In this document: piece by piece, positions 751 to 64,000 of the stretch | Layout of the letters: each line of letters opens with the position of its first letter | How positions within the stretch are numbered: position 1 is the stretch's first letter | Source of the DNA: an archaeon | GTDB lineage: Archaea; Iainarchaeota; Iainarchaeia; Iainarchaeales; CSSED10-239 | Assembly (NCBI GenBank): GCA_035390665.1 | Contig: DAOOUC010000003.1 | Coordinates: forward strand, 10,742-74,741 | DNA length: 64,000 bases | Direction of reading: 5' to 3' | Notes under the pieces: generated by a model | What the model was told of the DNA's origin: nothing | Seen by the model: the letters and a program-made list of their open reading frames with translations, nothing else | The model's database searches: none | Made by a program: the position numbers and the translations under genes

Positions 751-1515
751 TCACAATTTTTTTCCAGCTACAAAGAATATTGTCTTCTTTTCAAAAAGAT
801 TTAAAATTTCTGATTTTTCATTTCTTATATTTTTTTGACCGAGAATTTGGATATTATTATTCTTAAACCATTTCTTTACTTCTTTTAATGTGTGATAACT
901 TTCATATGGAACACAATATCTATCATAAAGTGTAGATTTTGGAGCATTATGAAATTTTTTTGTTCTATAAAGAAAAGAAATTATCTTATCTGGATCTTTA
1001 GAAACAAATGTGTGTAATAAAAATCTTTGAAAAAAATATCTTAAACGAGAATATTTGTGATATAATCCTATAATAACAATGCCGTCACTTTTAAGTTGTC
1101 CAACAATTCGCGTAAATCCCTTTTTTGCATTTTCTGTGTGATGAAGAACACCAAGAGAAACCACAATATCAAATTTGCCCAGATCTTCGAGATTGTCTTT
1201 TAAAATATCTTTTTCTTTAAAGATAACATTGTCTATTTTTTCTTTTTTTGCTTTTTTCTTAGCTTCTTCTAATTGACTTTTTGAAAAATCAATAGCAATA
1301 ACTTCTTTTGCTCCTGCTTTTGCAAAAAAAATAGATTTTTCTCCGGTTCCGCAACCAGCATCAAGTATTCTTTTACCAATTAAATCTTTTTCTTTCAATC
1401 CTGCTGTTTCAAGAATATTAAGTATAATTTTGTTATTGGTTCTAATTTGATTAGAAGTATATTGATTTGCTTTTGGATATGGCTGTTTATTATAGAACTC
1501 TTTAACTTTTTCCAT
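751..1515 (-). CDS. Class I SAM-dependent methyltransferase
   Basis: Motif I ILDAGCGTGEKS, then acidic residue and motif II/III spacing typical of Rossmann methyltransferases. Confidence 0.7.
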   Translation of the reverse strand: MEKVKEFYNKQPYPKANQYTSNQIRTNNKIILNILETAGLKEKDLIGKRILDAGCGTGEKSIFFAKAGAKEVIAIDFSKSQLEEAKKKAKKEKIDNVIFKEKDILKDNLEDLGKFDIVVSLGVLHHTENAKKGFTRIVGQLKSDGIVIIGLYHKYSRLRYFFQRFLLHTFVSKDPDKIISFLYRTKKFHNAPKSTLYDRYCVPYESYHTLKEVKKWFKNNNIQILGQKNIRNEKSEILNLFEKKTIFFVAGKKL

Positions 1516-1517
1516 TT

Positions 1518-2192
1518 CTATTTCTTTCTTCTTAATTTAATTTTTGCTAGTAATGCAGATAGAATTAATGCGGACTTAATTGCAACTCCTGCACCTGCAC
1601 TAACACCTAATATTGTCCCATACATATTTGCTTCTCTTTGAATATATTGCAATTCTGGTGCTGGAATTGTTTTTATTATATTTTCTAATCTTTGAATTTG
1701 ATTAGGTGTTAAATCTTTATATATATCTCCTAATGGCTTTTCTAAAAAATATTTTTCCCAAACTTGCCCACCTGCTTCTTGTAAAATTTTTTCAATTTCT
1801 TTTATTTGAGATTTATATTCTAGAATATTATAAATATTTCTCATTTTAATTGGATCCAAAGTAATTTTACTTATCTTTTGAGCATAACTATCCCAAAAAT
1901 ATATTTCTCCAAGTTTAGATTTTTCATTTAGTTTTCTTAAATTTGATTTAATTGTGACTTCTTTCCCTTTTGGATAAGATACATTAGATAAATGATTTCC
2001 ATAAGCAGATGTTGTTAATCTATCTTTTTGAAAATCCATTACTGCCCCTTTAGTTATATTTCCTGCAAATAAAGAAGCTCCAACAATTGTACCTGCTGCT
2101 GCAATCTTTATTTTTGTTTTTAATGATCTATTTGGATCGGCCTTTTTTTTTGGTTTTGATTTTATAGTGGTTTTTGGTTTAAATATTCCCAT
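1518..2192 (-). CDS. Hypothetical protein, basic N-terminus, hydrophobic segments near both ends
   Basis: ORF abuts the upstream gene. No recognisable motif. Confidence 0.35.
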   Translation of the reverse strand: MGIFKPKTTIKSKPKKKADPNRSLKTKIKIAAAGTIVGASLFAGNITKGAVMDFQKDRLTTSAYGNHLSNVSYPKGKEVTIKSNLRKLNEKSKLGEIYFWDSYAQKISKITLDPIKMRNIYNILEYKSQIKEIEKILQEAGGQVWEKYFLEKPLGDIYKDLTPNQIQRLENIIKTIPAPELQYIQREANMYGTILGVSAGAGVAIKSALILSALLAKIKLRRKK

Positions 2193-2272
2193 AATTTTTC
2201 ACAATTTTTATCTCTAATAAATAAAAGATTTAACAAAACACTTTATATTTCTTTTCTTTTTTAATTCTTTTT

Positions 2273-3769
2273 ATGTCAGAAACCGGTTTTAATAATGCAA
2301 AAAAAGATTTATTATCTTTACTTGAAGCTTCCTTAGCCATACGAACAAAAGATAAATCTAAAAAATATAGTTTGTTATTTAGTGGTGGAATTGATTCTTG
2401 CCTTATAGCAATGATTCTTAAAAAACAGAAAATAAACTTTACTTGTTTTTTTGCTTATGTTAAAGATAACACAGAAGCAAAAGATTTAATTTATGCAAAA
2501 AAAGCAGCAAAAGAACTTAATCTAAAACTTGACATTATTTCTGTAGACAAAAAAGAAATATCTAAAATTGTCCCCGAGATTATAAAAATTATTGATTCTG
2601 ATAATCCAATTAAAGTTGGTGTGGCAATTCCAGGATATTTATCTTGTAAAAAAGCTAAATCTAAAAAGACAGACATTATCTTTTCTGGACTTGGCTCTGA
2701 TGAATTATTTGCAGGATATAGTAGATTTACACTAAAAAATCAAAAAAAAGAAACCAAAAAGTGTCTAGATAATATTTACAAAGATAATCTGTCAAGAGAT
2801 GAAGCAATTGCAAAACATTTTAATCTATATGTAGATTGCCCATATCTTGATAAAAAAATTGTAGATTATTCCTTACAATTAGATTCAAAATTTTTTATTT
2901 CAAAAGTTCAGAATAAAATAATTATTAGAGAAATTGCAAAAGATCTTGGATTATCTAAAGAATTAGCTGAAAGAAAAAAATTAGCTTGCCAATATGGAAG
3001 TAATAGTGACAGAATTCTTGAAAAGCTTGCAAAAGAAAATAAATTTAAAACTAAAACAGAATATCTGTCTTCTTTTTCAAAAGAAAAAATTGGTGCACTT
3101 TACTCTGGAGGTAAAGATTCTAATTTATCTTTATGGCTTGCATTCAAAGAAGGGAAAGAAATTTCTTGTTTAATTTCTTTAATTCCTGAAAATATTGATT
3201 CCTATATGTTTCAAACACCTGATATTAATTTCCTGAAATTACAAGCTCTTGCTTTAGATATTCCACTCCTTATTACAAAAACAAAAGGAGAAAAAGAGAA
3301 AGAACTCTCAGATTTAAAAAATGCAATTAAATTTGCTAAAGAAAAATACAATTTAACCGGGATTGTTGCTGGTGCTCTTTATAGTGTTTATCAAAAAGAT
3401 AGAATTGAAAAGATTTGTAAAGATCTTAATCTAAAATTAATTGCACCACTTTGGCATATGAAAGAAGAAGATGAAATTAAACTACTTTTAAAAAACAAAT
3501 TTAAATTCATTATTTGCAAAATTGCAGCATATGGTTTTTCTGAAAAATTACTTGGAAAAGTTATTGATAATAAAGATTTAGGAGAATTAAAAAGATTAAA
3601 TGAAAAATATAAAAGCAATATTGCAGGAGAAGGCGGAGAATATGAAACCCTTGTTCTTGACTCTCCAATGTTTAAACAAAAAATATCCGTAATTGATCTT
3701 GAAAAAATAATGCAAAATGAGTTTACTGGGAATTTAATTATTAAAAAAGTAAAACTAGAGAAGAAATAG
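2273..3769 (+). CDS. Tandem PP-loop ATP pyrophosphatase: N-terminal asparagine-synthetase-like domain (no glutaminase) fused to a C-terminal diphthine-ammonia ligase (Dph6/MJ0570-like) domain
   Basis: N-half: SGGIDSCLIAM ... FSGLGSDELFAGYSRF (AsnB C-domain pattern). C-half: YSGGKDSNLSLWLA, DSYMFQTP, LIAPLWHM, GEGGEYETLVLDSPMF (Dph6/DUF71 signatures). Confidence 0.7.
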   Translation: MSETGFNNAKKDLLSLLEASLAIRTKDKSKKYSLLFSGGIDSCLIAMILKKQKINFTCFFAYVKDNTEAKDLIYAKKAAKELNLKLDIISVDKKEISKIVPEIIKIIDSDNPIKVGVAIPGYLSCKKAKSKKTDIIFSGLGSDELFAGYSRFTLKNQKKETKKCLDNIYKDNLSRDEAIAKHFNLYVDCPYLDKKIVDYSLQLDSKFFISKVQNKIIIREIAKDLGLSKELAERKKLACQYGSNSDRILEKLAKENKFKTKTEYLSSFSKEKIGALYSGGKDSNLSLWLAFKEGKEISCLISLIPENIDSYMFQTPDINFLKLQALALDIPLLITKTKGEKEKELSDLKNAIKFAKEKYNLTGIVAGALYSVYQKDRIEKICKDLNLKLIAPLWHMKEEDEIKLLLKNKFKFIICKIAAYGFSEKLLGKVIDNKDLGELKRLNEKYKSNIAGEGGEYETLVLDSPMFKQKISVIDLEKIMQNEFTGNLIIKKVKLEKK

Positions 3770-13241: not shown

Positions 13242-14651
13242 TTAATCAAGAGGAATAACGCATCTAAACCCAATCGAATCTGATTTATAACTTGGCGCCC
13301 ATCTTAAATTCATTGCAAAAACACCTGATGCATTTTCATCAAAATGTGTTCCACCCCTTACTATTGCGTGAACATTTGAATTATATGCAAGTCCTGAATT
13401 TGCTTGTCCTGGAGCAATATAAATTTTTCCAACACCTTGTTCTGAATCATAATCATTAAATGGTTTTATTTGACTATATGTTAAAGAACCCGATCTTGCC
13501 AAATTTGTAAATTCATACCAATCTCTTTCAAATAAATCTTCAAATCCTGGAGATCCATGCTGTACACCGCCACTATCATTTCCTTTATTATTTAAATCAG
13601 GATAATCCTCGCAGGTTCCATCACAACTTTCTATAATTGTTAAATCTACCCATTCTGCTAAATTTCCAGAGAAATCCCATATTTCTTCGCCATTAGATAA
13701 AACTAACTTAGCAAGTTCATTTCTATTATCTCCATAATCAATTAAACCCTTTAAATAGGATGCAGAACTATCTATTCCTACATTTCCTTTTTTTAATGAC
13801 CCTATTCCTGTTATTCCGCTATCCCAATTAGTTGAAACTTGTTCAATATTTCTTGCAATTGTCATCCATTCATCATTTGTTATTAAATGTGCACCAGAAT
13901 TCTCACAAATTTTTTTTACTGCACATAAATTTAAAATGGTTTCTGGAGGATCAGAAATTTTGTTTTCTAAAACCGCCATTGAACCATTAATTTCATTTCC
14001 TTCTTCACACATTCCATCAGAAATATATCCATCATTTATTCTAGCTTCATATTTTTGAACACAAAATTCAGAAGTATTATAATTTGGATTCCCTGGAACT
14101 GTAATATATCCATCTGGACAGCTTGTTGTTACTATTTCAGGATTATAACTTTCACAATATCTAAAATCAAAATCTTGTGAATTAACTTTTAATTCTATAT
14201 ATTTATTCTCAATGGTATATAAATTTAAAATAAAAGAACTTGATGGAAAACAAGCAATTGGAATTATAGTCAAATCTCCGCTATTTATTTCAATTTGTGG
14301 ATTTAATGCAATTCTTTTTGTAAGATATTTAGCATCCTGCAATTGATTATCAACTATAGTATATCCTTTAATAACTAAATCTTTTGTACTTGTATTTTGA
14401 ATTAAAACAGATCTATTTATTGCTTTTTTTACAAATATAAATCCTGTTATATCATCTTTTTCTGCTATTATATCTTTAGATGAAGACAATGTTGTATTTG
14501 TAAAATTTGTTCCCCAATTTATTATTATAGTAACTATAACTACACAAATTACTACAAGTAAAATAATTGCAATAATAGGAGATATTGCTTTTTCTTTTGT
14601 TCTCATATCTTTCTTTCTTTTTTTATTTAATTTATTTTTTTTTAAATTCAT
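13242..14651 (-). CDS. Pilin-like (class III signal peptide) surface protein with C-terminal formylglycine-generating-enzyme/SUMF1-like domain
   Basis: N-term basic stretch then KAISPIIAIILLVVICVVIV (archaeal prepilin-type signal). C-term HLITNDEWMTIARN, GNLAEWVDL, VRGGTHFDEN, SIGFRCVIPLD (FGE-sulfatase domain hallmarks). Confidence 0.6.
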   Translation of the reverse strand: MNLKKNKLNKKRKKDMRTKEKAISPIIAIILLVVICVVIVTIIINWGTNFTNTTLSSSKDIIAEKDDITGFIFVKKAINRSVLIQNTSTKDLVIKGYTIVDNQLQDAKYLTKRIALNPQIEINSGDLTIIPIACFPSSSFILNLYTIENKYIELKVNSQDFDFRYCESYNPEIVTTSCPDGYITVPGNPNYNTSEFCVQKYEARINDGYISDGMCEEGNEINGSMAVLENKISDPPETILNLCAVKKICENSGAHLITNDEWMTIARNIEQVSTNWDSGITGIGSLKKGNVGIDSSASYLKGLIDYGDNRNELAKLVLSNGEEIWDFSGNLAEWVDLTIIESCDGTCEDYPDLNNKGNDSGGVQHGSPGFEDLFERDWYEFTNLARSGSLTYSQIKPFNDYDSEQGVGKIYIAPGQANSGLAYNSNVHAIVRGGTHFDENASGVFAMNLRWAPSYKSDSIGFRCVIPLD

Positions 14652-37299: not shown

Positions 37300-40330
<3,031 letters not shown>

Positions 40331-40687: not shown

Positions 40688-42484
40688 TTAATTAGGAGAA
40701 TATAATAATCCTTCAACTTTTGTTGGTGTTTCAATTACTGGATCTCCTGAATCAACACCTAATTTTCCTTTGTCATTGCTTCCCCAACAATAAAGTTCTT
40801 TTATTTTTCCACTCCCTGGATCAACAATTGAACAAGTAAAATTATATCCTAAAGAAGTGTTTGTTTGATTAATCATATTTTTCATTGATTCTGGGACATT
40901 ATGTGAAAGTTCATCTTTTGATTCTAGTCCTAATTGCCCAAGGTTATTACTTCCCCAGCAACTTTGTGTAAATCCTTCTTTCCCATAAATTGCACAACTG
41001 TGAGTTTTTCCAACATCTAACATTTGAATATTTGTTAAACCAACAACAGGGACAAATACTGGAATATTTAAATCTCCTGCTCCAGAACCAAGTTTCCCGA
41101 ATTCATTATTTCCTGCACAAAATGCAGAGTTATTTTCTTGAATAAATAAACAAGAATGGTTATCTCCAACAGATACTCTCATGGATATTGGAGCATTTAT
41201 TTGTACTGGACTTAGTTGTGAAATAGTATCTTCAGTTCCTAATTGCCCAAAAGTATTATCTCCCCAACACATAACCTTCCCATCGGTTAATACTGCACAA
41301 GCATGAGTAATTCCTATATCAACACTTATAACATCTGATAAAACAAAAGTTGGAGAATCTTTATGATCTTTATCTCCAACTCCTAATTGTCCATAAGAAT
41401 TATCACCCCAACAATATAATTTATTTGCAGAATCAATAGCACAAGAAGAGTTTCCTCCAACAGCTATACTAGTCACTTCTCCAAATTCAGGAATAACTAC
41501 TGGTATTAAACTCAAACTTTCTGGAGTTTCAAAACCAAGTTGTCCATAAGAATTATCACCCCAACACATTACATCTTTTGTGTCTAATAATGCACAAGAA
41601 TGAGAAAATCCAATACTTACTTGTATTGCAGTATTAATCTCTAAAACTAAAACTGGTTTATTACTTAAGTCATTAGTTCCGTTTCCAAGTTGGCCTTTTT
41701 CATTATTTCCCCAACAATTAATTTTACCCCCCTCTAACAAAACACAAGCATGATTTTCTCCTAAGGATAACTGTAATGGTTCATCTATTAAATAATTGTA
41801 AGTAATAATATCACTATCTATATAATTTTCTTTTATTGCAATTAATTTTAAGGTAGTATCTTCTTGAATTAATATTGCACTACCATTATATTGATTACTT
41901 GTTTCAGAATCGGGGTTTGTCCCATCTGTTGTATAATAAATCATATCATTTTCATTATCTGGAGTCAAAGTAATTTCTGTATTTAATGGAAGATATCCTG
42001 AATCTAAAGAGGCGCTAGGATTTCCGACTTTTGGCTTTGTTTGTGGAGCTTTTGTAATAGTAGGTAAAGAAAAATAATTAGTTGAATTGTTTAAAACTAT
42101 AGAAACCTTTGTTCCGGTCAATACTGTATCTATTGGAATAATAACCGATGCTCCTGTTATTATCTCAATTTCAGAATCCAAAGTTATTTCTTCTGTATTT
42201 CCTTCATTGTCTGAAATTGTGTATCCTGTTATTGTTACATTATTTGGCCCTAAATTTTTAATATTTAAATTACCTGTTTTTTCTATTGTTGCAGCTACAA
42301 AAGAATTTACTACAATTTGATTTTCTATATATTTCTTAGTATCTAAAATTCCATCTGTTTTGTCTAAACTTTTATTTGTAAATTGATTTCCCCAACTTAA
42401 AATTGCAACAGTAATTATTGTTGCAACAACAACTAATAATATTACTGTTATAAGCGTTGACACAGCTTTAAATTTATTTTTCAT
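40688..42484 (-). CDS. Pilin-like (class III signal peptide) surface protein with RCC1-repeat beta-propeller
   Basis: N-term KAVSTLITVILLVVVATIIT. At least six repeats of the type CWG(D/N)N..GQLG (RCC1 signature), e.g. CWGDNSYGQLG, CWGNNEKGQLG, CWGSNNLGQLG. Confidence 0.65.
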   Translation of the reverse strand: MKNKFKAVSTLITVILLVVVATIITVAILSWGNQFTNKSLDKTDGILDTKKYIENQIVVNSFVAATIEKTGNLNIKNLGPNNVTITGYTISDNEGNTEEITLDSEIEIITGASVIIPIDTVLTGTKVSIVLNNSTNYFSLPTITKAPQTKPKVGNPSASLDSGYLPLNTEITLTPDNENDMIYYTTDGTNPDSETSNQYNGSAILIQEDTTLKLIAIKENYIDSDIITYNYLIDEPLQLSLGENHACVLLEGGKINCWGNNEKGQLGNGTNDLSNKPVLVLEINTAIQVSIGFSHSCALLDTKDVMCWGDNSYGQLGFETPESLSLIPVVIPEFGEVTSIAVGGNSSCAIDSANKLYCWGDNSYGQLGVGDKDHKDSPTFVLSDVISVDIGITHACAVLTDGKVMCWGDNTFGQLGTEDTISQLSPVQINAPISMRVSVGDNHSCLFIQENNSAFCAGNNEFGKLGSGAGDLNIPVFVPVVGLTNIQMLDVGKTHSCAIYGKEGFTQSCWGSNNLGQLGLESKDELSHNVPESMKNMINQTNTSLGYNFTCSIVDPGSGKIKELYCWGSNDKGKLGVDSGDPVIETPTKVEGLLYSPN

Positions 42485-53235: not shown

Positions 53236-54966
53236 ATGTATTTAAAACTTAAAGAAAATAGTATAGACAAAGATTTATTTTATAACTGTTATAAAAATTT
53301 TGATAAAAAAGAGTTAGTTGTATTTAATTGTAAAAACTGTAATGATGCCCCTTGTATTTTAGCTTGCCCGCAAAAAGCTATATCTAAACAAAAAAATGGA
53401 ATTGTTTTTATTGATTCAAAAAAATGTATTGGCTGTAAAAGTTGTGTGTTTGCTTGTCCAGAAAATGCAATTATTTTTAAGAATAATAAAGCTACAAAAT
53501 GTGATTTATGTTTAAATAATTCATTTATCATGCCATGTTATTATGCTAATAGAGATGTATTAGAATTCTGTGAAAATTTAGATTCTGAAACACACACAAT
53601 AATCTTAGAAAAATATTTAGGATATATAATTACAAAGGAAAAAATAATCCAAACCCTATCGTTAGATGGAAAGGTTATAAAAACAGATAATAAAACAATG
53701 TATTTACTTAAATATCAACAGTTATCCAATGATGAAATAAAAGTTATTAATGAAATACTTGATTCTTATAAATTCAAAACCGAAGAATATAATCAAAATA
53801 TTAAATTAAATCTAGAAACAGAACTAATAGAATATTGTTATAAAAACAATATAGAATTAGATAAAGACCAATTCTCTTATTTAATTGATCTTGCCATAAA
53901 TAATTTATTTGAATTCGGGCCATTAACACATTTACTTAATGATTTTAATCTGGAAGAAATTGCAATAATTGGGATAAATCTCCCTGTATTTGTATATCAT
54001 AGAATTTATGGCTGGCTAGAAACTAATTTAAAATATATTTCTGAACAAAAATTAAAGGATATAATAAATAAATTAGGTTGGAATACAAACAAATATATTA
54101 CATTGAAGAATCCAATAATGGATGCAACTTTAAAAGATCACACTCGACTTAATGCTATAATTTCTCCAATAACAGAAAGTGTTTGTTTAACCATTAGAAA
54201 ATTTTCAGAAAGACCAATATCTATTTTTGATTTATTAAAATATAAAACTATCTCATCTAAAGCTCTTGCTTTTCTTAAATTAGCATTTTTAACTGACGCT
54301 AATATTTTTGTTGTTGGTAATACTGGTTCTGGTAAAACTACTACTTTAAATGCATTATTGGATTTTATACCAAAAGAGGAGCGCCTTATTCTTGTTGAAG
54401 AAGTTCAGGAAATTAATGTTACACATCCACACAAGGTGTCAATTTTAGTAAATAAAGAATTGGGAATTACTATGGAAAATCTAATAATAAATACACTTAG
54501 AATGAGACCAGATAAGGTCGTGATTGGAGAAGTAAGATCTAGAGAAGAATCAAATGCATTAATTGATTCTTTACTTTGTGGTCAAGCTAAAGGGACATAT
54601 ACAACTTTTCATGCACAATCTGCAAAAGATGCAACCTTGAGGTTTCTTTCTTATGGGATTTTAGAAAATGATATTACTGCAATAGATCTAATCATAACTC
54701 AAAGAAGATATAACGAATATATTAATGACAGCAATTTTAAGGATAAAAGAAAAATATTTGAAATCTCTGAAATATTTTATGAGAATAATAAACTAAAAAT
54801 CAATAAAATATTTGAATATTGCCCAGATAAAAAAGAATTATTATTTAAAAACTACCCAAATAAACTAATGCAAAAATTTCAACTTGCTTTTGGGATAAAA
54901 ACCAAAAAACAATTATTGGAATTAATAGATATAGAAGAAAAGAGAATTCTATCTAAAAAAATTTGA
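53236..54966 (+). CDS. Type II/IV secretion-family ATPase (TadA/CpaF/VirB11-like) with N-terminal di-cluster [4Fe-4S] ferredoxin domain
   Basis: N-term CKNCNDAPCILACP and CIGCKSCVFACP. Walker A VVGNTGSGKTTTLNALL. Asp/His boxes RMRPDKVVIGEVRSREE...GQAKGTYTTFHAQSAKDA. Confidence 0.75.
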   Translation: MYLKLKENSIDKDLFYNCYKNFDKKELVVFNCKNCNDAPCILACPQKAISKQKNGIVFIDSKKCIGCKSCVFACPENAIIFKNNKATKCDLCLNNSFIMPCYYANRDVLEFCENLDSETHTIILEKYLGYIITKEKIIQTLSLDGKVIKTDNKTMYLLKYQQLSNDEIKVINEILDSYKFKTEEYNQNIKLNLETELIEYCYKNNIELDKDQFSYLIDLAINNLFEFGPLTHLLNDFNLEEIAIIGINLPVFVYHRIYGWLETNLKYISEQKLKDIINKLGWNTNKYITLKNPIMDATLKDHTRLNAIISPITESVCLTIRKFSERPISIFDLLKYKTISSKALAFLKLAFLTDANIFVVGNTGSGKTTTLNALLDFIPKEERLILVEEVQEINVTHPHKVSILVNKELGITMENLIINTLRMRPDKVVIGEVRSREESNALIDSLLCGQAKGTYTTFHAQSAKDATLRFLSYGILENDITAIDLIITQRRYNEYINDSNFKDKRKIFEISEIFYENNKLKINKIFEYCPDKKELLFKNYPNKLMQKFQLAFGIKTKKQLLELIDIEEKRILSKKI

Positions 54967-54972
54967 ATAATT

Positions 54973-55686
54973 ATGTTGTCTAATAACATTAAAATGCTTT
55001 TGATTTTAGGGTTAGTAATAACTATATTATTTTTATTATTAAATTTCATATATCCTTTAGATTTAATATTCTTAATTTATATTGAATTCATTTTTGTTGT
55101 TATTTATTATTCGGTTTGGTTTTTTATAAAACGGATAAAAGAACAAGATGAGAAAACAAGATTGTTAAGAGAACTTCCTTTTTTTCTTAATAGTCTTGCT
55201 AGTGATCTAGATAAAAATATACCTTTAAAATTATCTTTAGAAAATCAAGCTAAAAGAAATACTTTGATTGGAACAAAAGTCAGTTTAGCACTGTTTCTTG
55301 TTTCAAATAAAGGATATACTTTACAATCAGCATTAGAAAATATATCTAAAAATAATATTGAATTAGAGCGAGTAATTTATCAAATAATAGACATTTTACA
55401 TAGTGGGACTAAAAATAAATCAGAAGTTTTTAGAATATTAGCTAATAATTTTCTAGAGCAACAAAGCACGGCCACGAAAAATTATTCCACCAAATTAAGT
55501 TTCTTATCTTTAGTCTTTGTTGTTGTGTCCGCAATTGTCCCCGCTTTATTTTTAATGTTTTTCTTAGTTGGCAGTAATTTTTTTGAGATTGAAATTTCGG
55601 TGGTTGGCATTATTTTAATAACAATAATTTTATTTCCAATCATTGATATGTTCATATTATTATTTATGAGAGCAAATCTTGTTTAG
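54973..55686 (+). CDS. TadB/TadC-like (T2SS-F domain) pilus platform membrane protein, first of a split pair
   Basis: N-terminal TMs, cytoplasmic helical domain RELPFFLNSLASDLDKNIPLKLSLE..., two C-terminal TMs. Confidence 0.55.
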   Translation: MLSNNIKMLLILGLVITILFLLLNFIYPLDLIFLIYIEFIFVVIYYSVWFFIKRIKEQDEKTRLLRELPFFLNSLASDLDKNIPLKLSLENQAKRNTLIGTKVSLALFLVSNKGYTLQSALENISKNNIELERVIYQIIDILHSGTKNKSEVFRILANNFLEQQSTATKNYSTKLSFLSLVFVVVSAIVPALFLMFFLVGSNFFEIEISVVGIILITIILFPIIDMFILLFMRANLV

Positions 55687-55698
55687 GGGCAATAAACA

Positions 55699-56517
55699 AT
55701 GAAAAAATATTTAATTATTATTTTTAATATTTTATCTATCTTTGTTTTTATTATCTATAAAATTAATATTTTCCTTTCTTTAATTTTTTTAATTGTTGGT
55801 AATATTATAATTATTTTATTAAATAAATTATATTGTAAATATATTATAGATCTTGAGCGAAAAAAAATAGAATATGCACTTTTAGATGAAATTTTAGTAT
55901 TATCAAGTCAACCAAGAATTAATGACCTTAATCAATTACTTACAAAATTGTCTCATTCCAATAACAAACTAATATCTAAAGAATTTAGAATAATTCTTCA
56001 TAAAATTGAAGAAGGACATAGTGTTAAAGATGTACTTTTTGTATTTTCAAAAAAATATAACTCTGAAATATTAGATCGCTTTCTTGATTTATTATATGGA
56101 TCTATTACCACTGGTACTACATCTGTTGTTGATTATCGTTCTTTTGCCAATAATTTTTTAAAGTCTAAGCAATTAATTGACGAAAGAAATTCAGTTCTTT
56201 TAATTCAAAAATATACTATTATTTTTGCAGGGTGTTTTATTGTACCAGGAATATTAGGAATTGTAATTTCTTTAGTTAACAAATTAATTGGAAACTTAGA
56301 TTTTTCATTAATTGATGCCTCAACCAAATTAGCAAGTAATACAATGTTATTTTCTACTTGTTATTATTGTTCTATTATTTATATTATAGAATATGTATTC
56401 ATTTCTTCAATTTATTTAAGCATGTTAGAATCAGATATTAAAAAAACTATAATTTATATTATTTTCTTAATGCCAATTTCTATAATTATATTTTTTTTAA
56501 GTTCTATTCTTATTTAA
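55699..56517 (+). CDS. TadC-like (T2SS-F domain) pilus platform membrane protein, second of the pair
   Basis: Same architecture: ALLDEILVLSSQPR...FRIILHKIEEGHSVKDVL... then TMs. Confidence 0.55.
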   Translation: MKKYLIIIFNILSIFVFIIYKINIFLSLIFLIVGNIIIILLNKLYCKYIIDLERKKIEYALLDEILVLSSQPRINDLNQLLTKLSHSNNKLISKEFRIILHKIEEGHSVKDVLFVFSKKYNSEILDRFLDLLYGSITTGTTSVVDYRSFANNFLKSKQLIDERNSVLLIQKYTIIFAGCFIVPGILGIVISLVNKLIGNLDFSLIDASTKLASNTMLFSTCYYCSIIYIIEYVFISSIYLSMLESDIKKTIIYIIFLMPISIIIFFLSSILI

Positions 56518-59212: not shown

Positions 59213-60862
59213 TCATTCAGGCAAAGGATCTTGAGTATTATTTCTTAGATAAGGATATGTTATTCCTTCTTCTATTCCCCAGATATCTGTAAAATTCCAA
59301 TCAGTAAACGTATCTTGTGTTTTCATTTCTGTGGTTGTTTTTGGAACTCCTCTCCCATCATTATCTGATTGCCCAGAAGTATTTGTATCATATATAATAT
59401 AATATATTCGAGAAATATCTCCGCCGCCCAATAAGCCCCCATAATTTTCATTACCGATAACTGATCCTGCAGAATAAGAACTAAAAATAATTCCTTCAGG
59501 TAATCGTATAGGAGGAGGTGTTAACTCCCCATTATACCCCACAAGTCCACCTACATAATTATTACCACTAACATTACAAAAGGAATAAGAATCAGTTATT
59601 CCCCCCCTATTATATCCAACTAACCCACCAATATCATTTCCTTCAGAACTAACAATTTCACCAATAGAATAACTATTGATAATATCCCCCCTCTTATATC
59701 CAACTATCCCACCAACATCGCTCTCTGAACTAATTATTTTAATATTAGAATAACTATTTTCTATATTTCCATAACCTAATCCAACTAATCCACCACAATC
59801 ACTTCCACAATAAATATTCCCATTAAAACTACTGGAATTTATATCTCCACCATCTGAATTAAATCCCGCTCTATTATTTATTCCTATTAATCCTCCAATA
59901 GCAGAATTACCTGATATAGTTCCAGAAGAATGTACATTAGAAAGTATTGAAAACCACATAAAGTTTCCAACAATACTACCTACATTATTTGACCCTATAA
60001 TATTTACATCAGTCAAAATTAAATTTTTTATTTCAATCATTTTACTTTCTGTATATTTAATATATCCAAATAAACCAATATTATCGTTCTCTGGTAAATT
60101 AATATATAAATTACTTATTGTGTAATTATTTCCATTAAAACTTCCTTCAAAACCACTATCATCAGAACCTATTGGTTCAAAGCCCTCTCCTTCATTGTAT
60201 GGACTAACACCAAGATCTAGGTTTTTTCCAAGTTTATAGTGCTTGCCAAGCCCATTTCTAACATTATTAAGATCATCAACACTACAGATTACAAATGGAT
60301 CTTCTTCAATTTTTCCACTTCCATTATCTGTTATTCCTAAACAAACAGGATCTGGTATTTCTGTATTATTAAAACAAGAATTGGATTGATAATTACTATT
60401 GTTAATTGGAACAGTAATATATTTCCCATCACTAGTTATTAAATTTACTTTAAAAGATTCATCTGGATTACAAATAATTGGAACAGAAACCATTGATCCA
60501 GAATTTAAATTGACGGGGTCATCTAAAGTTATTGGCTTATTTAATATTTCGCTATCTTGTGGTGCAACAATTTCATATTTTGTAATTATTACATCTTTAT
60601 CGGATAGATTTTTTACAATATAGCTTTCTGGTTGAGGATTACTAGTATATATATACCCTGTTAATGTTGGATCTTCTTTATAAATTTCTTGAGATTTATC
60701 TAATGAATTACTAGTGGTTATTAATCCCCAAGAAAGAATAGAACCTACAATTATAACTGCAATTACAAGTAAAAGAATTACAGAAATGATTGGAGAAAAC
60801 GATTTCTTATTTAAATCTCTCAAATCTTTTATTCGTTTAGATTTAAATTTATGTTTTCTCAA
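59213..60862 (-). CDS. Pilin-like (class III signal peptide) surface protein with GLUG-motif beta-helix repeats
   Basis: N-term KKSFSPIISVILLLVIAVIIV. Repeats AIGGLIGINNR, CGGLVGLGYGNI, DVGGIVGYKRGDI, DIGGLVGYNRGGI, NYVGGLVGYNGEL, ENYGGLLGGGD. Confidence 0.6.
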   Translation of the reverse strand: MRKHKFKSKRIKDLRDLNKKSFSPIISVILLLVIAVIIVGSILSWGLITTSNSLDKSQEIYKEDPTLTGYIYTSNPQPESYIVKNLSDKDVIITKYEIVAPQDSEILNKPITLDDPVNLNSGSMVSVPIICNPDESFKVNLITSDGKYITVPINNSNYQSNSCFNNTEIPDPVCLGITDNGSGKIEEDPFVICSVDDLNNVRNGLGKHYKLGKNLDLGVSPYNEGEGFEPIGSDDSGFEGSFNGNNYTISNLYINLPENDNIGLFGYIKYTESKMIEIKNLILTDVNIIGSNNVGSIVGNFMWFSILSNVHSSGTISGNSAIGGLIGINNRAGFNSDGGDINSSSFNGNIYCGSDCGGLVGLGYGNIENSYSNIKIISSESDVGGIVGYKRGDIINSYSIGEIVSSEGNDIGGLVGYNRGGITDSYSFCNVSGNNYVGGLVGYNGELTPPPIRLPEGIIFSSYSAGSVIGNENYGGLLGGGDISRIYYIIYDTNTSGQSDNDGRGVPKTTTEMKTQDTFTDWNFTDIWGIEEGITYPYLRNNTQDPLPE

Positions 60863-60868
60863 ATAATT

Positions 60869-63088
60869 TCACTTCCCTACTTTTTTTTTAAGATCTTTCT
60901 TTGGCTTTTCTATTTTTGGTTTTATTTCATTATTCTTTTTTTGTTCTGAAATTACGATGTTTTCTTTTGTGTGTCTTCTATACTCTTTTTCTTCTATTTC
61001 TCTTAATTCTTTTAAATAACTTTTTTTCATGTCTTCATATGTAAATTTACTAATTTGCCCGTTTGTTAATTTATGTTCTAGTTCTAATATATTTCTTTGT
61101 ATTTTAGATTTCTTGTTGTTGTGTTTTTCTAATTCTATAACAATTGAAATTATCATTAAGAATAATCCCCCAATAATTACATACATTATCGTATTGTTCT
61201 TAGAAGAATCTTCCTTTTTATAAACAATTACATTTTGTTTATCTTCTACTTTTGAGATAATTTCATCAGAATCATTTATATCTATGATTATTTGATTATT
61301 GCCTTCTGGAACAACTACATCAATTATTCCTGCATCATTATAATACGAATGTACAATTGATTCAATAATATACAATTCTTTAGAAATATTAACAATAGAA
61401 TTTGCTGTTTTTATGTTTGTCTCTGCTTTTGTTGTATTTTTTGATTTATAGAATTGATATTGCTTATAGTGATACAAGGAATGATCAAAAAACATTTTTG
61501 ACCAAACGTTTGTATTTAATTTGATTTCTTGTGGTGATCTTAATTCAGATAATTTGTTGTATTTATCTAAGAATACATTCTCATCGAACGACTCTTTAGA
61601 ATTTTCTTTTCTAGAGATTAATACTGCTTTTGCAGATGCTGAATCATATAAAGAAGTAACATACCATCCCATTTCAAAATCTTTTTTTGCAGCAGTAATT
61701 CTTCTTTGAATATCTTCGTCTGATAATGCCTCTTCATCAGATAATACTAATTCATTTTCTACATCAACAATATACTTTTGGGCTAAATCCTTAAATTGTT
61801 CACTTTCTACAAAATTTGGACCATTATTTGTTATTCCAATATCTAAGAAATCATTAGCAATTTCAATCCATGCTAATGCATAACTATAATTCATTATCTT
61901 ATCTATTCCTGTACTGGAGGTATATTTATTTGATTTTATATCTGCAATTTTATTTTTTGCCCAAACAATTCTTTGTTTAGCTCCAATACACCATTCTAAT
62001 TTATCTAAAGAACAAAGCTTAGATCTATTCTCAGTTAATGCAATTTTTTTCTCTATTTCTTCTATTCTTAAATTATAAATTGTAGAATCTGTAGATATAA
62101 TGGATGGATTTTTTACAATTTCATCTATTGTTATTAAATAGATTTTTGCTAAAAATGCATCATTTGCAGAAGTGTATAGGTAATTATTTTTAGAATTTTC
62201 TTCTGCAGACACAATTGCTTCTTTAGAATAATCAACTAATGATAAAAGTCCTTGAACAATAGAACTATCTTTAATTGTACTTGAGTTAATATTATTTTCT
62301 GTTCTTAATAAAATACTTTTTGCATCTATTACATATTTATCAACTACTGCTCTCATAGGCACTAATGCCTCAGAATATTGTATTTTTTCTGGATAATATT
62401 CTGCTTCTTTTTTTTCTACTATGCTATTAATATCTATTTCATCTATATTCATTTTTGAATATTCTAAAATATCGTCAATTGTCTCAACTTCAACTACTTT
62501 AAGTCCCCAATTAGAATAAGCATAATCAACAATGTCAACGACTTGTGATTGTCCAGATTCAGTTGTAATTGCTTGTTTTCTTGTGCCTATTGGAATCATA
62601 AATAATTTAATTCCAACATCTGCTGCTTTTTTTGCTTTTGCTGAAATTCCCCCAACATCTCCAACATACCCGTCAGAAGTAATTGTTCCGGTAATACTAA
62701 CTTTGCCTGATAAATCAGTATCATTTAACATAGAAACAATAAGTAAAGCCATTGCAGCTCCTGCAGAAGGCCCATCAATACTACTTGCATTTGATTGAAT
62801 TTCAAAAAAATAATCATATTTACCTTTAGCTTGTGATGTTATTTTTTCTGCAGCATTAACTGCATTTCTTTCTGATTCTTGTGTTAAAGAACCAACTTGA
62901 GAATTAACATTAGAAAAAATCTTTCCTGTTCCTGGTTTTATTTCAATAATAAGATTAGCATCCATTCCAATATTAGAAGAAGTTACAGCAAAAATTTTCA
63001 TTTCTTCTTTAGGGATATATGCAAATATATTTGCAGATATAAGAAGTATAAACATTAATATTAATAATCTTTTATTCATTTTTTTCAC
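60869..63088 (-). CDS. Secreted, C-terminally membrane-anchored S16 (Lon-like) peptidase-domain protein without AAA+ module
   Basis: Signal peptide LLILMFILLISANIFA. DGPSAGAAMALLIVSMLND...ITGTITSDGYVGDVGGISAKAKKAADVGIKLFMIPIG (Lon catalytic Ser/Lys region). TM MYVIIGGLFLMIISIVI near the C-terminus. Confidence 0.55.
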   Translation of the reverse strand: MKKMNKRLLILMFILLISANIFAYIPKEEMKIFAVTSSNIGMDANLIIEIKPGTGKIFSNVNSQVGSLTQESERNAVNAAEKITSQAKGKYDYFFEIQSNASSIDGPSAGAAMALLIVSMLNDTDLSGKVSITGTITSDGYVGDVGGISAKAKKAADVGIKLFMIPIGTRKQAITTESGQSQVVDIVDYAYSNWGLKVVEVETIDDILEYSKMNIDEIDINSIVEKKEAEYYPEKIQYSEALVPMRAVVDKYVIDAKSILLRTENNINSSTIKDSSIVQGLLSLVDYSKEAIVSAEENSKNNYLYTSANDAFLAKIYLITIDEIVKNPSIISTDSTIYNLRIEEIEKKIALTENRSKLCSLDKLEWCIGAKQRIVWAKNKIADIKSNKYTSSTGIDKIMNYSYALAWIEIANDFLDIGITNNGPNFVESEQFKDLAQKYIVDVENELVLSDEEALSDEDIQRRITAAKKDFEMGWYVTSLYDSASAKAVLISRKENSKESFDENVFLDKYNKLSELRSPQEIKLNTNVWSKMFFDHSLYHYKQYQFYKSKNTTKAETNIKTANSIVNISKELYIIESIVHSYYNDAGIIDVVVPEGNNQIIIDINDSDEIISKVEDKQNVIVYKKEDSSKNNTIMYVIIGGLFLMIISIVIELEKHNNKKSKIQRNILELEHKLTNGQISKFTYEDMKKSYLKELREIEEKEYRRHTKENIVISEQKKNNEIKPKIEKPKKDLKKKVGK

Positions 63089-63581
63089 TCACTATTTTTT
63101 TTTGTTCAAAACTTGGTTTTGCTTTCTTATTATATAACACTTCAAATTTCTTTGTGGTTTCTAAAATATTTCTTCTTCCTTTTTTTGTAACCTGTATTAA
63201 ACCTAATTCTTTTAAAGTTGGAAGATGATCATTTGGTCTTCTTTTTGTAATCTTATATTGCTCAACAGGACTGTTTAGAGCAATTAATGCTAAAGTCTTT
63301 AGTTCTGATTTTGTCAATTGTTTACCAACAGCAAACAAACTATATTTTGCATATTCTGGTTTAAGTAACATCTCTACATTATCATTTTCTTGAACAATTC
63401 TTACTGCTGAGTTTCTATTTTCATATTCTATTATTAAATCTGAAAGAATAATCTTTATTACTTCCTTATCTGCTTCTGGAAAAGACTTTTCTATTTTTTT
63501 TATAGGAACTGATCTTGGGCTCATAAATAATATTGCTTCAATTGAATTTTTTATCTCTGACATGTCTTTTTGTTTTTCCAT
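63072..63581 (-). CDS. scpB: Segregation and condensation protein B
   Basis: IEAILFMSPRSVPIKKI and second wHTH ALIALNSPV. 169 aa. Follows the scpA-like gene with a 17-nt overlap. Confidence 0.55.
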   Translation of the reverse strand: MEKQKDMSEIKNSIEAILFMSPRSVPIKKIEKSFPEADKEVIKIILSDLIIEYENRNSAVRIVQENDNVEMLLKPEYAKYSLFAVGKQLTKSELKTLALIALNSPVEQYKITKRRPNDHLPTLKELGLIQVTKKGRRNILETTKKFEVLYNKKAKPSFEQKKIVSEKNE

Positions 63582-63592
63582 AATTGTTCACA

Positions 63593-64000
63593 TTATAAAA
63601 CTTTAATAAATATTTCTGAGAAGAATTCTTCTTGCCAAGCATCTACCTTCTTATCTTGAACAAGAAACAAAAGAGGGATAAAGTAATTTTCTACAATCAA
63701 ATAAGAATCTTTTTCTTTTTTTGTAAATTTAGAGAATAAAACCATATTATAATTGTCTGCGTTTTGTTTTATTTCTTCAAATAAACTTTCGCTTCTTTTT
63801 GAAAAATCAACTGTTTTTTTTGGAAGAATAAATTCTAGTTCTTTCTTTTCTTTAATTCTCTTTTCTAAACTTTTTTTATTAGTTGATGTGTTCATCATAA
63901 CATCAATAACATCAATTAGTTCATCAAGGCTTACTTGTCCTTCTTTTAATCTCATAGGTGTATTTAAATCTATAGAATTACTTAAAACATAATTATCGTC
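63593..64000 (-). CDS. scpA: ScpA-like kleisin, C-terminal portion (5' end beyond window)
   Basis: Frame open to the window edge. C-term ...FIPLLFLVQDKKVDAWQEEFFSEIFIKVL matches the ScpA C-terminal winged helix (..ALLEL.k.g.v...Q...FgeI.i). Confidence 0.5.
   Translation of the reverse strand, partial: DDNYVLSNSIDLNTPMRLKEGQVSLDELIDVIDVMMNTSTNKKSLEKRIKEKKELEFILPKKTVDFSKRSESLFEEIKQNADNYNMVLFSKFTKKEKDSYLIVENYFIPLLFLVQDKKVDAWQEEFFSEIFIKVL

Follow-up and report, generated by a model that had tools for sequence, protein, structure and literature searches.

The gene at 59213-60862 on the minus strand of the 64-kb stretch of DNA analyzed here (the window) encodes a protein with a pilin-like N terminus and a body of GLUG repeats, and it lies beside a gene for a Lon-type protease. 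These features raise the questions of what kind of surface protein it is and whether the two neighbors act together. We conclude that this gene, here called the GLUG-pilin, probably encodes a modular archaeal type IV pilin that serves as a variable, pilus-displayed adhesin, a counterpart of the modular pilins of bacteria.

The GLUG-pilin gene and its setting

The GLUG-pilin open reading frame specifies 549 amino acids, and its assignment draws on a Pfam GLUG match above the cutoff, an AlphaFold (AF2) model, and a conserved family of the same architecture. The gene starts at a TTG codon at 60862, with a Shine-Dalgarno-like sequence (GGAAGTGA) just upstream. A second in-frame TTG lies 14 codons into the gene. 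Since the relative L008 has TTA at that position, the upstream start and the basic leader of 21 residues are probably real. The neighboring genes encode Trm5, DUF63, LonC, and ScpAB. The window is AT-rich (GC of ~27%), and an archaeal 23S rRNA identifies the host as an archaeon. It is probably a small member of DPANN, an affiliation suggested by the GC content and by the names given to the MAGs of relatives. A bacterial promoter and terminator scan returned counts equal to the shuffled expectation, its model being bacterial and inapplicable to archaea.

A predicted archaeal pilin module at the N terminus

Residues 1-21 (MRKHKFKSKRIKDLRDLNKKS; 60800-60862, minus strand) form the basic leader of a class III signal, with cleavage predicted after Ser21. 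The sole hydrophobic segment of the protein follows (...NKKS↓FSPIISVILLLVIAVIIVG), and the GLUG-pilin thus shows the complete class III pattern of a basic leader, G, A, or S at position -1, and ~20 uncharged hydrophobic residues. The signature [K/R]-[S/A/G]↓[I/L/V/F]-[S/T]-P-[L/I]-[I/V] is present in 120 of 150 family representatives, in which position -1 is S in 66, A in 40, and G in 13. TIGR02537 (archaellin/type IV pilin N-terminal domain, arch_flag_Nterm) scores 19.7 on the whole protein against a cutoff of 20 and 21.5 on the N-terminal module alone, where the match spans residues 18-45. Two observations count against the pilin reading: the leader is long for this family, in which the median is 8 residues, and the Pfam Pilin_N score (PF07790) is 14.6, below the cutoff of 25.2. 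Pilin_N is matched at E < 1e-3 by 10 of 99 family members. The initial annotation described this N terminus as the closest match in the window to the archaeal prepilin consensus. A class III signal is indeed present, and the GLUG-pilin ranks highest by TIGR02537, but the signal is not unique: the genes at 13242-14651 and 40688-42484 (both minus strand) have equivalents, and the former scores higher with Pilin_N (17.1).

Downstream of the signal, the hydrophobic alpha-1 helix of the pilin module comprises residues 22-57 (60692-60799, minus strand), as judged from the modeled helix at 24-57, the TIGR02537 match, and hydrophobicity. It leads into an Ig-like beta-sandwich at residues 58-153 (60404-60691, minus strand), which has seven strands in both structural models. 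The AF2 model of the full-length protein has a pLDDT of 88.3 and a pTM of 0.80, while a model of the N-terminal module alone, built from three sequences, is of low confidence (pLDDT of 62.5) and served as corroboration only. Foldseek divides the full-length model in two, with the N-terminal module matching archaeal type IV pilus subunits and the body matching 3n6z and the N-terminal beta-helix of IgA1 protease. The module matches comprise 8fk7_A (E of 6e-5 and 4e-6), 8fj5, 8q30, 8tib, 6nav, 6w8x, and 6w8u; those to solved archaeal pilins have probabilities of 0.95-1.0 and TMt values of 0.35-0.50 at a sequence identity of 12-20%. Residues 22-153 are thus predicted to make up a complete archaeal type IV pilin module of helix and beta-sandwich.

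A predicted GLUG beta-helix body with a conserved cap

A cysteine-containing linker or neck (residues 154-189; 60296-60403, minus strand), modeled as lacking regular secondary structure, connects the pilin module to the body. C174 and C193 are conserved. The body itself is a predicted GLUG right-handed beta-helix of ~320 residues (190-507; 59342-60295, minus strand), supported by Pfam, motif positions 295-475, Foldseek, and DNA repeats. PF07581 matches with an E of 3.7e-12 and 46.2 bits, well above the cutoff of 20.5, and the AF2 model shows a right-handed parallel beta-helix with pLDDT mostly above 90 over residues 190-500; both the GLUG assignment and the beta-helix of the initial annotation are borne out. 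Its count of at least seven GG(L/I)(V/L)G repeats needs adjustment, as the strict pattern occurs five times, the relaxed GG[LIVF][LIVF]G six times, and eight motifs are reached with degenerate G[GS]xxG included. Seven of these eight are spaced 26-34 residues apart (shuffled-sequence mean, 0.08). The best structural matches of the body are 3n6z (E of 1.5e-7, TMt of 0.60), 7uvk, 6xjb, and 6xja, ranging to an E of 1e-4. At the DNA level the body contains repeats of 81-84 nt; with just 64-79% identity between units, slipped-strand variation is unlikely. A conserved C-terminal cap (residues 508-549; 59216-59341, minus strand) with the aligned pattern KTTTEMK..TF.DWNF..IW.I.EG..YPYL closes the protein, and its residues T510, W522, F524, W528, Y536, and P537 are almost invariant in archaeal and bacterial GLUG proteins.

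We considered two further identities for the protein. An M26 IgA1 metalloendopeptidase is opposed by the lack of an HExxH motif and of any M26 C-terminal family, by a Peptidase_M26_N score of 12.8 against 27.7 bits, and by the comparison with ZmpA (19 bits against 3000). A type V autotransporter is opposed by the archaeal host, by the 42-amino-acid cap at the C terminus, and by the lack of any autotransporter family match. Archaea do not have the outer membrane needed for autotransport. The repeats had initially been called typical of adhesins and IgA-protease-like autotransporters; the adhesin-like appearance holds, but the autotransporter parallel is imprecise. GLUG is found in Gram-positive M26 IgA1 metalloproteases and is absent from the autotransporters of the serine IgA1-protease type, whose structure is unrelated (PMC7695701). 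The N-terminal beta-helix of the former is a non-catalytic domain that binds the Fab of IgA1 (PMC7695701).

Distribution of the module among archaeal proteins

The window encodes three modular pilins with a common N-terminal module, the GLUG-pilin included. Domain searches show that one paralog (40688-42484, minus strand) carries the same module followed by CHB_HEX_C_1/Fn3_assoc and an RCC1 beta-propeller, while the other (13242-14651, minus strand) has an N-terminal module 40% identical to that of the GLUG-pilin and a sulfatase-like (FGE-sulfatase-like) C-terminal domain. We identified 18 full-length homologs of the GLUG-pilin, all with the signal, pilin module, GLUG body, and cap. A profile search with the N-terminal module retrieved ~325 clusters, in which the module is nearly always N-terminal and lengths range from 79 to 1271 amino acids. 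Among the best 150 representatives, 18 are no longer than 230 amino acids and are mainly plain pilins with a few fragments. The cargoes tallied in 99 representatives include Laminin_G_3 (23), RCC1 (9), GLUG (6), Lcl_C (6), DUF5122 (6), and PKD (5), along with Kelch and NHL. In the P0007 lineage, a pilin with the same module lies directly downstream, giving tandem pilin genes. In its range of cargoes, this archaeal family follows the same pattern as the modular pilins of bacteria (PMC8179133). A family of ~325 clusters can now be defined and systematically annotated, most of its members currently being nameless, and the modular pilin design, so far documented for bacteria, would extend to a definable archaeal pilin family.

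Cassette replacement between near-identical contigs

We assessed sequence variation of the GLUG-pilin between related contigs from different samples, and the variation described here is between such contigs rather than within one cell line. Sliding nucleotide identity to L088 is 98-100% up to codon 163, falls to 70-90% at codons 164-263 and to at most 48% at codons 264-500, and returns to 92-100% from codon ~519. Blastn breakpoints bound the resulting cassette (codons ~164-518; 59309-60373, minus strand), and the segment identities are those of a mosaic. The flanks are 95-100% identical among the window, L088, and L006, while the cassette is unalignable, and these three contigs carry three alleles of the GLUG body. 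A fourth version occurs in a more distant relative (L008, the same as L093) with flanks of ~78-82% identity. Probing metagenomes for additional alleles recovered nothing beyond the L006 contig and one duplicate of the L008 allele. These comparisons indicate that the middle part of the GLUG-pilin is replaced by recombination between near-identical strains or population members.

Candidate assembly machinery and proposed function

A candidate assembly motor is encoded at 53236-54966 on the plus strand. It is a type IV pilus/archaellum-type ATPase (T2SSE PF00437, E of 8e-36; FlaI-like, 201 bits) with an N-terminal 4Fe-4S ferredoxin-like domain, supported by Fer4 families on residues 31-94 and a CxxCxxCxxxC motif. 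Two T2SSF/TadC-like platform protein genes follow on the plus strand (54973-55686 and 55699-56517, together 54973-56517), with PF00482 scores of 19.1 and 25.5 bits. The three genes (53236-56517) lie 2.7 kb from the GLUG-pilin, and the split platform fits "system 1" of the archaeal type IV filament (TFF) systems of DPANN (10.64898/2026.04.22.720090). The linkage between the GLUG-pilin and the ATPase cluster is kept in L006 and L007 and missing in L001, L003-5, L010, L013, and L026, which counts against the pilin reading. So does the result of a screen for a prepilin peptidase, which consisted of a motif scan (G.GD.K/GGGD) and Pfam searches on selected multi-TM proteins and found none in the 64-kb window; the multi-TM open reading frames were only MFS, CitMHS, and proteins with no assigned family.

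We infer the following course of events for a modular pilin. The GLUG-pilin would be cleaved after Ser21 by a prepilin peptidase whose gene lies elsewhere in the genome, beyond the window, and the pilin module would then enter a type IV filament made by the Fer4-ATPase and split-platform machinery nearby. Because the GLUG-pilin is bulky, it would most likely be a low-abundance or tip subunit; a beta-helix of 320 residues may clash sterically inside the filament body, which we count against the pilin reading. The beta-helix would be displayed as a ligand-binding, adhesin-type module, and exchange of codons ~164-518 would alter the displayed surface while the assembly module and cap are kept. 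For an episymbiotic DPANN-type archaeon, the likely ligand would be a host-cell surface.

We tentatively suggest, as a possibility well short of probable, that DPANN-type archaea have a dedicated modular pilin family in which one carrier with interchangeable lectin, propeller, or GLUG heads serves as a host-recognition device, the head being recombined between strains at this locus. If this is true, pilin cassette swapping would determine or change the host range or allow escape from viruses that target pili, comparable to the swapping of phage tail fibers. The locus offers a concrete, testable candidate for how ultrasmall DPANN archaea recognize and hold their host cells, combining a pilin with an adhesin-type helix, two sibling pilins, adjacent machinery, and alleles that differ only in the head. 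Saccharibacteria, their bacterial counterpart, are reported to need type IV pili for episymbiosis (PMC9894109).

Alternative explanations

The GLUG-pilin could instead be an anchored surface protein resembling those of the bindosome, with its class III signal and helix used only for export and for anchoring in the membrane or a pseudopilus. The GLUG helix would then lie on the surface of the cell and not on an extended pilus, in parallel with the sugar-binding proteins of Sulfolobales. Class III proteins with diverse and even long beta-helical C termini have been reported not as classical pilins but as functionalized substrates of TFF machineries (10.64898/2026.04.22.720090). Many family members are located away from any ATPase cluster. 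No plain major pilin of this module was found in the 64-kb window, which also counts against the pilin reading, and no E+5-type pilin was found there either. What makes this alternative doubtful, in our estimation, is that the whole pilin globular domain matches polymerizing pilins, unlike in bindosome proteins, that the family includes plain pilin-sized members and tandem pilin genes, and that Pfam and NCBIfam give no solute-binding family match and no ABC transporter is nearby. We regard it as improbable that the displayed beta-helix is an enzyme, a polysaccharide lyase or hydrolase degrading host or environmental polymers. Many right-handed beta-helices are such enzymes, the sibling pilins bear enzyme-like or carbohydrate-related modules (FGE-sulfatase-like, CHB_HEX_C), and Foldseek returns weak matches to fucoidan lyase FdlA's N-terminal domain and to DFA-IIIase (probability of 0.1-0.3). 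The strong matches (probability of 1.0), however, are to the non-catalytic GLUG helices of 3n6z and the IgA1-protease N-terminal domain, conservation falls on structural positions (Gly, Leu, and aromatic), no HExxH motif or enzyme family in Pfam or NCBIfam is found, and alleles exchange the body freely, as would be unusual for an active site.

The adjacent gene at 60869-63088 (minus strand), considered here as context only, encodes a Lon_C (S16) protease (PF05362, E of 1.5e-12), and alignment places its DGPSAG serine and a lysine at the catalytic dyad of Escherichia coli Lon. It was initially taken for a secreted S16 peptidase; the family and the export stand, but the protein appears membrane-anchored rather than freely secreted, since residues 4-22 form a signal or anchor at its N terminus and residues 633-651 a transmembrane segment near its C terminus, where a charged tail is also present. 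The same annotation suggested that protease and GLUG-pilin may form a surface pair for processing or adhesion; in such a model the protease would process or release the adhesin, or both proteins would contribute to adhesion together. The genes are on the same strand, 6 nt apart, and probably cotranscribed, both products are predicted to be extracytoplasmic, and the Ser-Lys dyad is retained. ScpA and ScpB are in the same apparent operon, so cotranscription says little about function. Among at least 15 related loci, adjacency was confined to the window, L006, L008/L093, and L088, whose local gene order is the same throughout (LonC identity of ~97% in L006 and 72% in L008, the most divergent), and it is not conserved across lineages. 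The order ScpA-ScpB-LonC-slot-Trm5 is itself conserved, but four relatives (L016, L089, L090, and L091) keep the ScpB-LonC-Trm5 backbone with the slot empty or occupied by an unrelated open reading frame. The slot proteins of L089 and L090 (237-247 amino acids) were considered as hidden pilins and are basic soluble proteins instead. No Lon_C gene lies within the 5.4- to 10-kb flanks of the pilin-type GLUG genes in six other lineages (L001/2, L003-5, L007, L010, L013, and L026), and in the genome to which L089 and L007 both belong the GLUG-pilin is ~12 kb from LonC. Class III signals, moreover, are cut by aspartic A24 peptidases and not by Lon-type proteases. Synteny largely refutes the surface pair, to which we give almost no credence; the adjacency is best read as a lineage-specific accident of gene order, and annotations should not pair the Lon_C neighbor with the GLUG-pilin.

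Comparison with known systems

As a modular pilin, the GLUG-pilin resembles bacterial proteins such as Streptococcus sanguinis PilB (vWA) and PilC (ConA-like lectin) described by Raynaud et al. in 2021 (PMC8179133). Both combine a small pilin module, a short linker, and a bulky module not specific to pilus biology, draw on a broad range of grafted modules (the ConA-like lectin, PF13385, is also the commonest archaeal cargo), and have a predicted role in adhesion, probably at the pilus tip. Adhesion has been demonstrated for S. sanguinis PilB, whereas we infer it for the GLUG-pilin. The GLUG-pilin also differs in its archaeal [S/A/G]↓[I/L]-S-P-[I/L]-I signal without the IPR012902 N-methylation motif, in an Ig-like sandwich resembling that of Pyrobaculum, Sulfolobus, and Haloferax pilins, and in its GLUG cargo, which is not among the bacterial modules described in the available part of that study (PMC8179133). 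It carries an extra domain as the bacterial set does, but its N terminus is archaeal and matches no bacterial pilin family. Judged from sequence, it would work like a modular pilin but fall outside the bacterial set.

The solved pilins of Pyrobaculum calidifontis (8fk7), Haloferax volcanii (8fj5), Sulfolobus acidocaldarius (Aap, 8q30), S. islandicus (6nav and 8tib), and S. solfataricus (6w8x) share the class III signal and the N-terminal hydrophobic helix with a beta-sandwich. They are 130-140 amino acids long and end after the sandwich, whereas the GLUG-pilin runs ~400 residues further. The repeat family PF07581 and the predicted fold of that extension are shared with BACOVA_03286 (3n6z) and the M26 IgA1-protease N-terminal domain (6xjb, 6xja, and 7uvk). 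In contrast to the M26 proteases, the GLUG-pilin has neither M26 catalytic domains nor HExxH and comes from an archaeal host, and it would be attached through a pilin module rather than in an LPXTG or signal-peptide context. The Sulfolobales bindosome proteins GlcS, AraS, and TreS likewise combine a class III signal with a variable C-terminal domain and a shared ATPase and platform, and beta-helical C-terminal domains have been noted among archaeal TFF substrates (10.64898/2026.04.22.720090). Bindosome proteins bind solutes, lie beside ABC transporters, and have no pilin globular domain, whereas the GLUG-pilin joins a complete pilin module to an adhesin-type cargo and shows cassette replacement at the strain level.

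The pattern of variation in the GLUG-pilin recalls, by analogy only, the Neisseria PilE/pilS system in having a fixed N-terminal part and an exchanged exposed part. In Neisseria, gene conversion keeps a conserved, assembly-competent N-terminal part of PilE while the hypervariable exposed part is exchanged by recombination. The two differ in that the window holds no silent cassettes, with no open reading frame other than the GLUG-pilin containing at least two GGxxG motifs, and in that the unit exchanged here is the whole beta-helix body.

Pilin-type N terminus and GLUG beta-helix

The GLUG-pilin gene (59213-60862, minus strand) is an open reading frame of 549 aa with a TTG start codon and GGAAGTGA upstream of it. 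Another in-frame TTG reads TTA in the relative L008; translation therefore probably includes the 21-residue basic leader. The only hydrophobic segment of the protein is FSPIISVILLLVIAVIIVG (residues 22-40). The archaellin/type IV pilin N-terminal domain model TIGR02537 (cutoff 20) scores 19.7 on the whole protein and 21.5 on its first 176 residues, and Pfam Pilin_N remains subthreshold at 14.6 bits. Pfam GLUG lies well above its cutoff (46.2 versus 20.5 bits). The strict motif GG[LI][VL]G occurs five times and a relaxed form six times; counting degenerate motifs gives eight, seven of them at 26-34-residue spacing, compared with a mean of 0.08 in shuffled sequences. The pilin-like N terminus and GLUG repeats described in the initial annotation are therefore real, but its count of at least seven motifs was slightly generous.

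An AlphaFold2 model built on 34 homologs (pLDDT 88.3, pTM 0.80) comprises a helix (residues 24-57), a seven-stranded beta-domain (61-153), an unstructured neck containing Cys, an all-beta solenoid (190 to ~500), and a small cap. Foldseek searches against the PDB divide this model cleanly into two parts. The body resembles the GLUG beta-helix 3n6z (E 1.5e-7, TMt 0.60), in agreement with the beta-helix anticipated from the repeats, as well as M26 IgA1 protease N-terminal domains (7uvk, 6xjb, and 6xja). Over its first ~140 residues, the model resembles archaeal type IV pilin subunits of known structure, namely, 8fk7 (E 6e-5), 8q30, 8tib, 6nav, 6w8x, and 6w8u. A lower-confidence model of this N-terminal pilin module (N-module) alone (pLDDT 62.5) again matches 8fk7 best (E 4e-6), followed by the Haloferax pilin 8fj5. 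These matches to solved pilins indicate that the predicted N terminus is a complete pilin module, more than a signal peptide. In IgA1 protease, the beta-helix corresponding to the GLUG body is noncatalytic and binds the IgA1 Fab (PMC7695701); the catalytic HExxH of the M26 enzymes sits in other domains, and this motif is absent from the GLUG-pilin sequence.

A family of modular pilins

A protein search with GLUG-pilin returned 1568 matches. Eighteen full-length relatives (38-60% identity) keep the four-part plan, with a common signature, [K/R]-[S/A/G]|[I/L/F]-S-P-[I/L]-I, and conserved Cys131, Cys174, and Cys193. Two further proteins in the window carry the same N-module (33-40% identity): one (13242-14651, minus strand) has an FGE-sulfatase-like end (Pfam, 22.3 bits, slightly short of the cutoff), and the other (40688-42484, minus strand) has CHB_HEX_C_1/Fn3_assoc and a seven-repeat RCC1 beta-propeller. 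We built a profile from the three N-modules and searched 1.84 billion representatives, which identified 325 clusters with E<=1e-3, 160 of them reaching E<=1e-10. In nearly every case the module is N-terminal, and the proteins span 79-1271 aa. Among the 150 best family members, 120 have the cleavage signature (median leader, 8 residues) and 18 are of 230 aa or less, mostly plain pilins with a few fragments. Pfam cargoes grafted C-terminal to the module in 99 representatives include Laminin_G_3 (23), RCC1 (9), GLUG (6), Lcl_C (6), DUF5122 (6), PKD (5), CHB_HEX_C (4), Kelch, NHL, and DUF285.

In the lineage of the homolog P0007, a pilin with the same N-module directly follows GLUG-pilin. At L003 (11619-12179), the pilin encoded downstream of GLUG-pilin has 186 aa; in the near-identical genome of L010 (11574-12377), it has 267 aa, including a CHB_HEX_C-like insert, a further example of a module gained or lost within the family. 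The related MAG SO_2017_LW1_34 (L016, 9236-13947) encodes a 1118-aa protein that combines the signal KG|QVSIEILI with two GLUG beta-helices and with CHB_HEX_C domains, followed by a 443-aa protein with a signal of the same type. This class III signal is of a different type from that of GLUG-pilin, so GLUG heads are joined to no fewer than two distinct kinds of archaeal pilin-type N termini.

Variation of the GLUG head

Over 9 kb, contig L006 shares 95-97% identity with the window, but window positions 60061-59209 have no blastn match. L088 is ~100% identical to the window in both flanks and codons 1-163, 70-90% identical over codons 164-263, unalignable over 264-500, and 92-100% identical from ~519; it is identical to L006 up to ~codon 283 and diverges thereafter. 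At the protein level, the window N-module is 98% identical to P0002/P0003 and only 32-38% identical to P0007, P0013, and P0016, while the GLUG body is 54-60% identical to the latter three and only 40-43% identical to P0002, P0003, and P0004. A frameshift near position 2425 interrupts the L006 allele (1296-3031) and could stem from phase variation, pseudogene formation, or misassembly; with read-through, the allele would encode the GLUG body and C-cap plus an additional CHB_HEX_C domain at the C terminus. No additional alleles were recovered in a metagenome probe, and the window contains no silent GLUG cassettes. Slippage is an unlikely source of the variation because the GLUG repeat units are too diverged.

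Linkage to pilus machinery

The GLUG-pilin gene lies 2.7 kb from three genes (53236-56517) that encode a T2SSE-type ATPase, with a 4Fe-4S domain at its N terminus, and two T2SSF-like platform proteins. This linkage is kept in L006 and L007 and is absent from more distant lineages. A split platform is the defining trait of archaeal TFF "system 1," which is reported from methanogens and DPANN (10.64898/2026.04.22.720090). The ATPase (53236-54966, plus strand), of the type IV pilus/archaellum type, has a ferredoxin-like 4Fe-4S domain at residues ~24-96 (CxxCxxCxxxC), and relatives with 68-99% identity keep this fusion (L006, 7274-9004; L007, 3113-4900; L089, 13316-end). The same preprint mentions that the N-terminal domains of these ATPases vary and that Aap systems have a separate Fe-S protein; a term search of it did not find the fusion.

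We consider GLUG-pilin most likely to be a modular archaeal type IV pilin that displays a variable GLUG adhesin head. Its class III signal would be cleaved, the nearby ATPase/platform machinery would build the protein into a filament, and the head may mediate adhesion. The main alternative is a bindosome-like display, in which the protein would be exposed outside a filament. The modular pilin reading has precedent: modular pilins are already known in bacteria, where a pilin carrier displays an effector fused to it, probably at the tip of the pilus (PMC8179133), the same carrier-and-module design as in the archaeal family. Archaeal class III signal proteins with variable, even beta-helical, C-terminal domains also appear in the 2026 preprint 10.64898/2026.04.22.720090. 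The term "modular pilin" referred to bacteria in every case in the literature searched, and our search for GLUG, pilin, and archaea together found no published combination.

The Lon_C neighbor and genomic context

The adjoining ORF (60869-63088, minus strand; LonC) has a Lon_C domain whose catalytic Ser and Lys align with those of E. coli Lon. Its sequence begins with a signal or anchor and ends with a transmembrane segment and a charged tail, and the protein is thus predicted to be exported but membrane anchored; the initial annotation had called it secreted. A conserved backbone, ScpA-ScpB-LonC-[slot]-Trm5-DUF63, surrounds it. The slot holds GLUG-pilin in the window, L006, L008 (=L093), and L088; it is empty in L016 and L091, and in L089 and L090 an unrelated ORF, basic and soluble, occupies it. 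L089 and L007 come from one 130-kb contig, on which GLUG-pilin lies ~12 kb from LonC, past the pilus cluster, and no Lon_C gene occurs within the 5.4- to 10-kb flanks of the pilin-type GLUG genes of L001/2, L003-5, L010, L013, and L026. The proposed surface pair of GLUG-pilin and the S16 peptidase therefore fails the synteny test set for it in the initial annotation, and we reject it. The slot ORF (L089, 8199-8942; L090, 8268-8981) is conserved, very basic, and 237-247 aa long, without a Pfam match.

The window also contains a complete archaeal 23S rRNA gene, isolated at 37334-40314 (minus strand); no 16S or 5S gene was detected across the 64 kb, and the rRNA genes thus appear unlinked. The rRNA gene excepted, the window is AT rich (GC mostly 0.23-0.33). 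GC content and the names of the relatives' MAGs suggest that the source organism is probably an episymbiotic DPANN archaeon. LonC relatives (720-860 aa) form a conserved family named "S16 family serine protease" in MAGs labeled Diapherotrites, Micrarchaeota, or simply archaeon; among the named matches listed, almost all MAGs are labeled as DPANN lineages or simply archaeon. This uncharacterized family combines an exported Lon_C domain lacking an AAA+ module with a ~450-aa middle region, a C-terminal transmembrane segment, and a charged tail. The ScpA-ScpB-LonC order (window 60869-63955, minus strand; L016, L089, L090, and L091) persists in relatives with as little as 48% LonC identity; in the window, the ScpB and LonC genes overlap by 17 nt.
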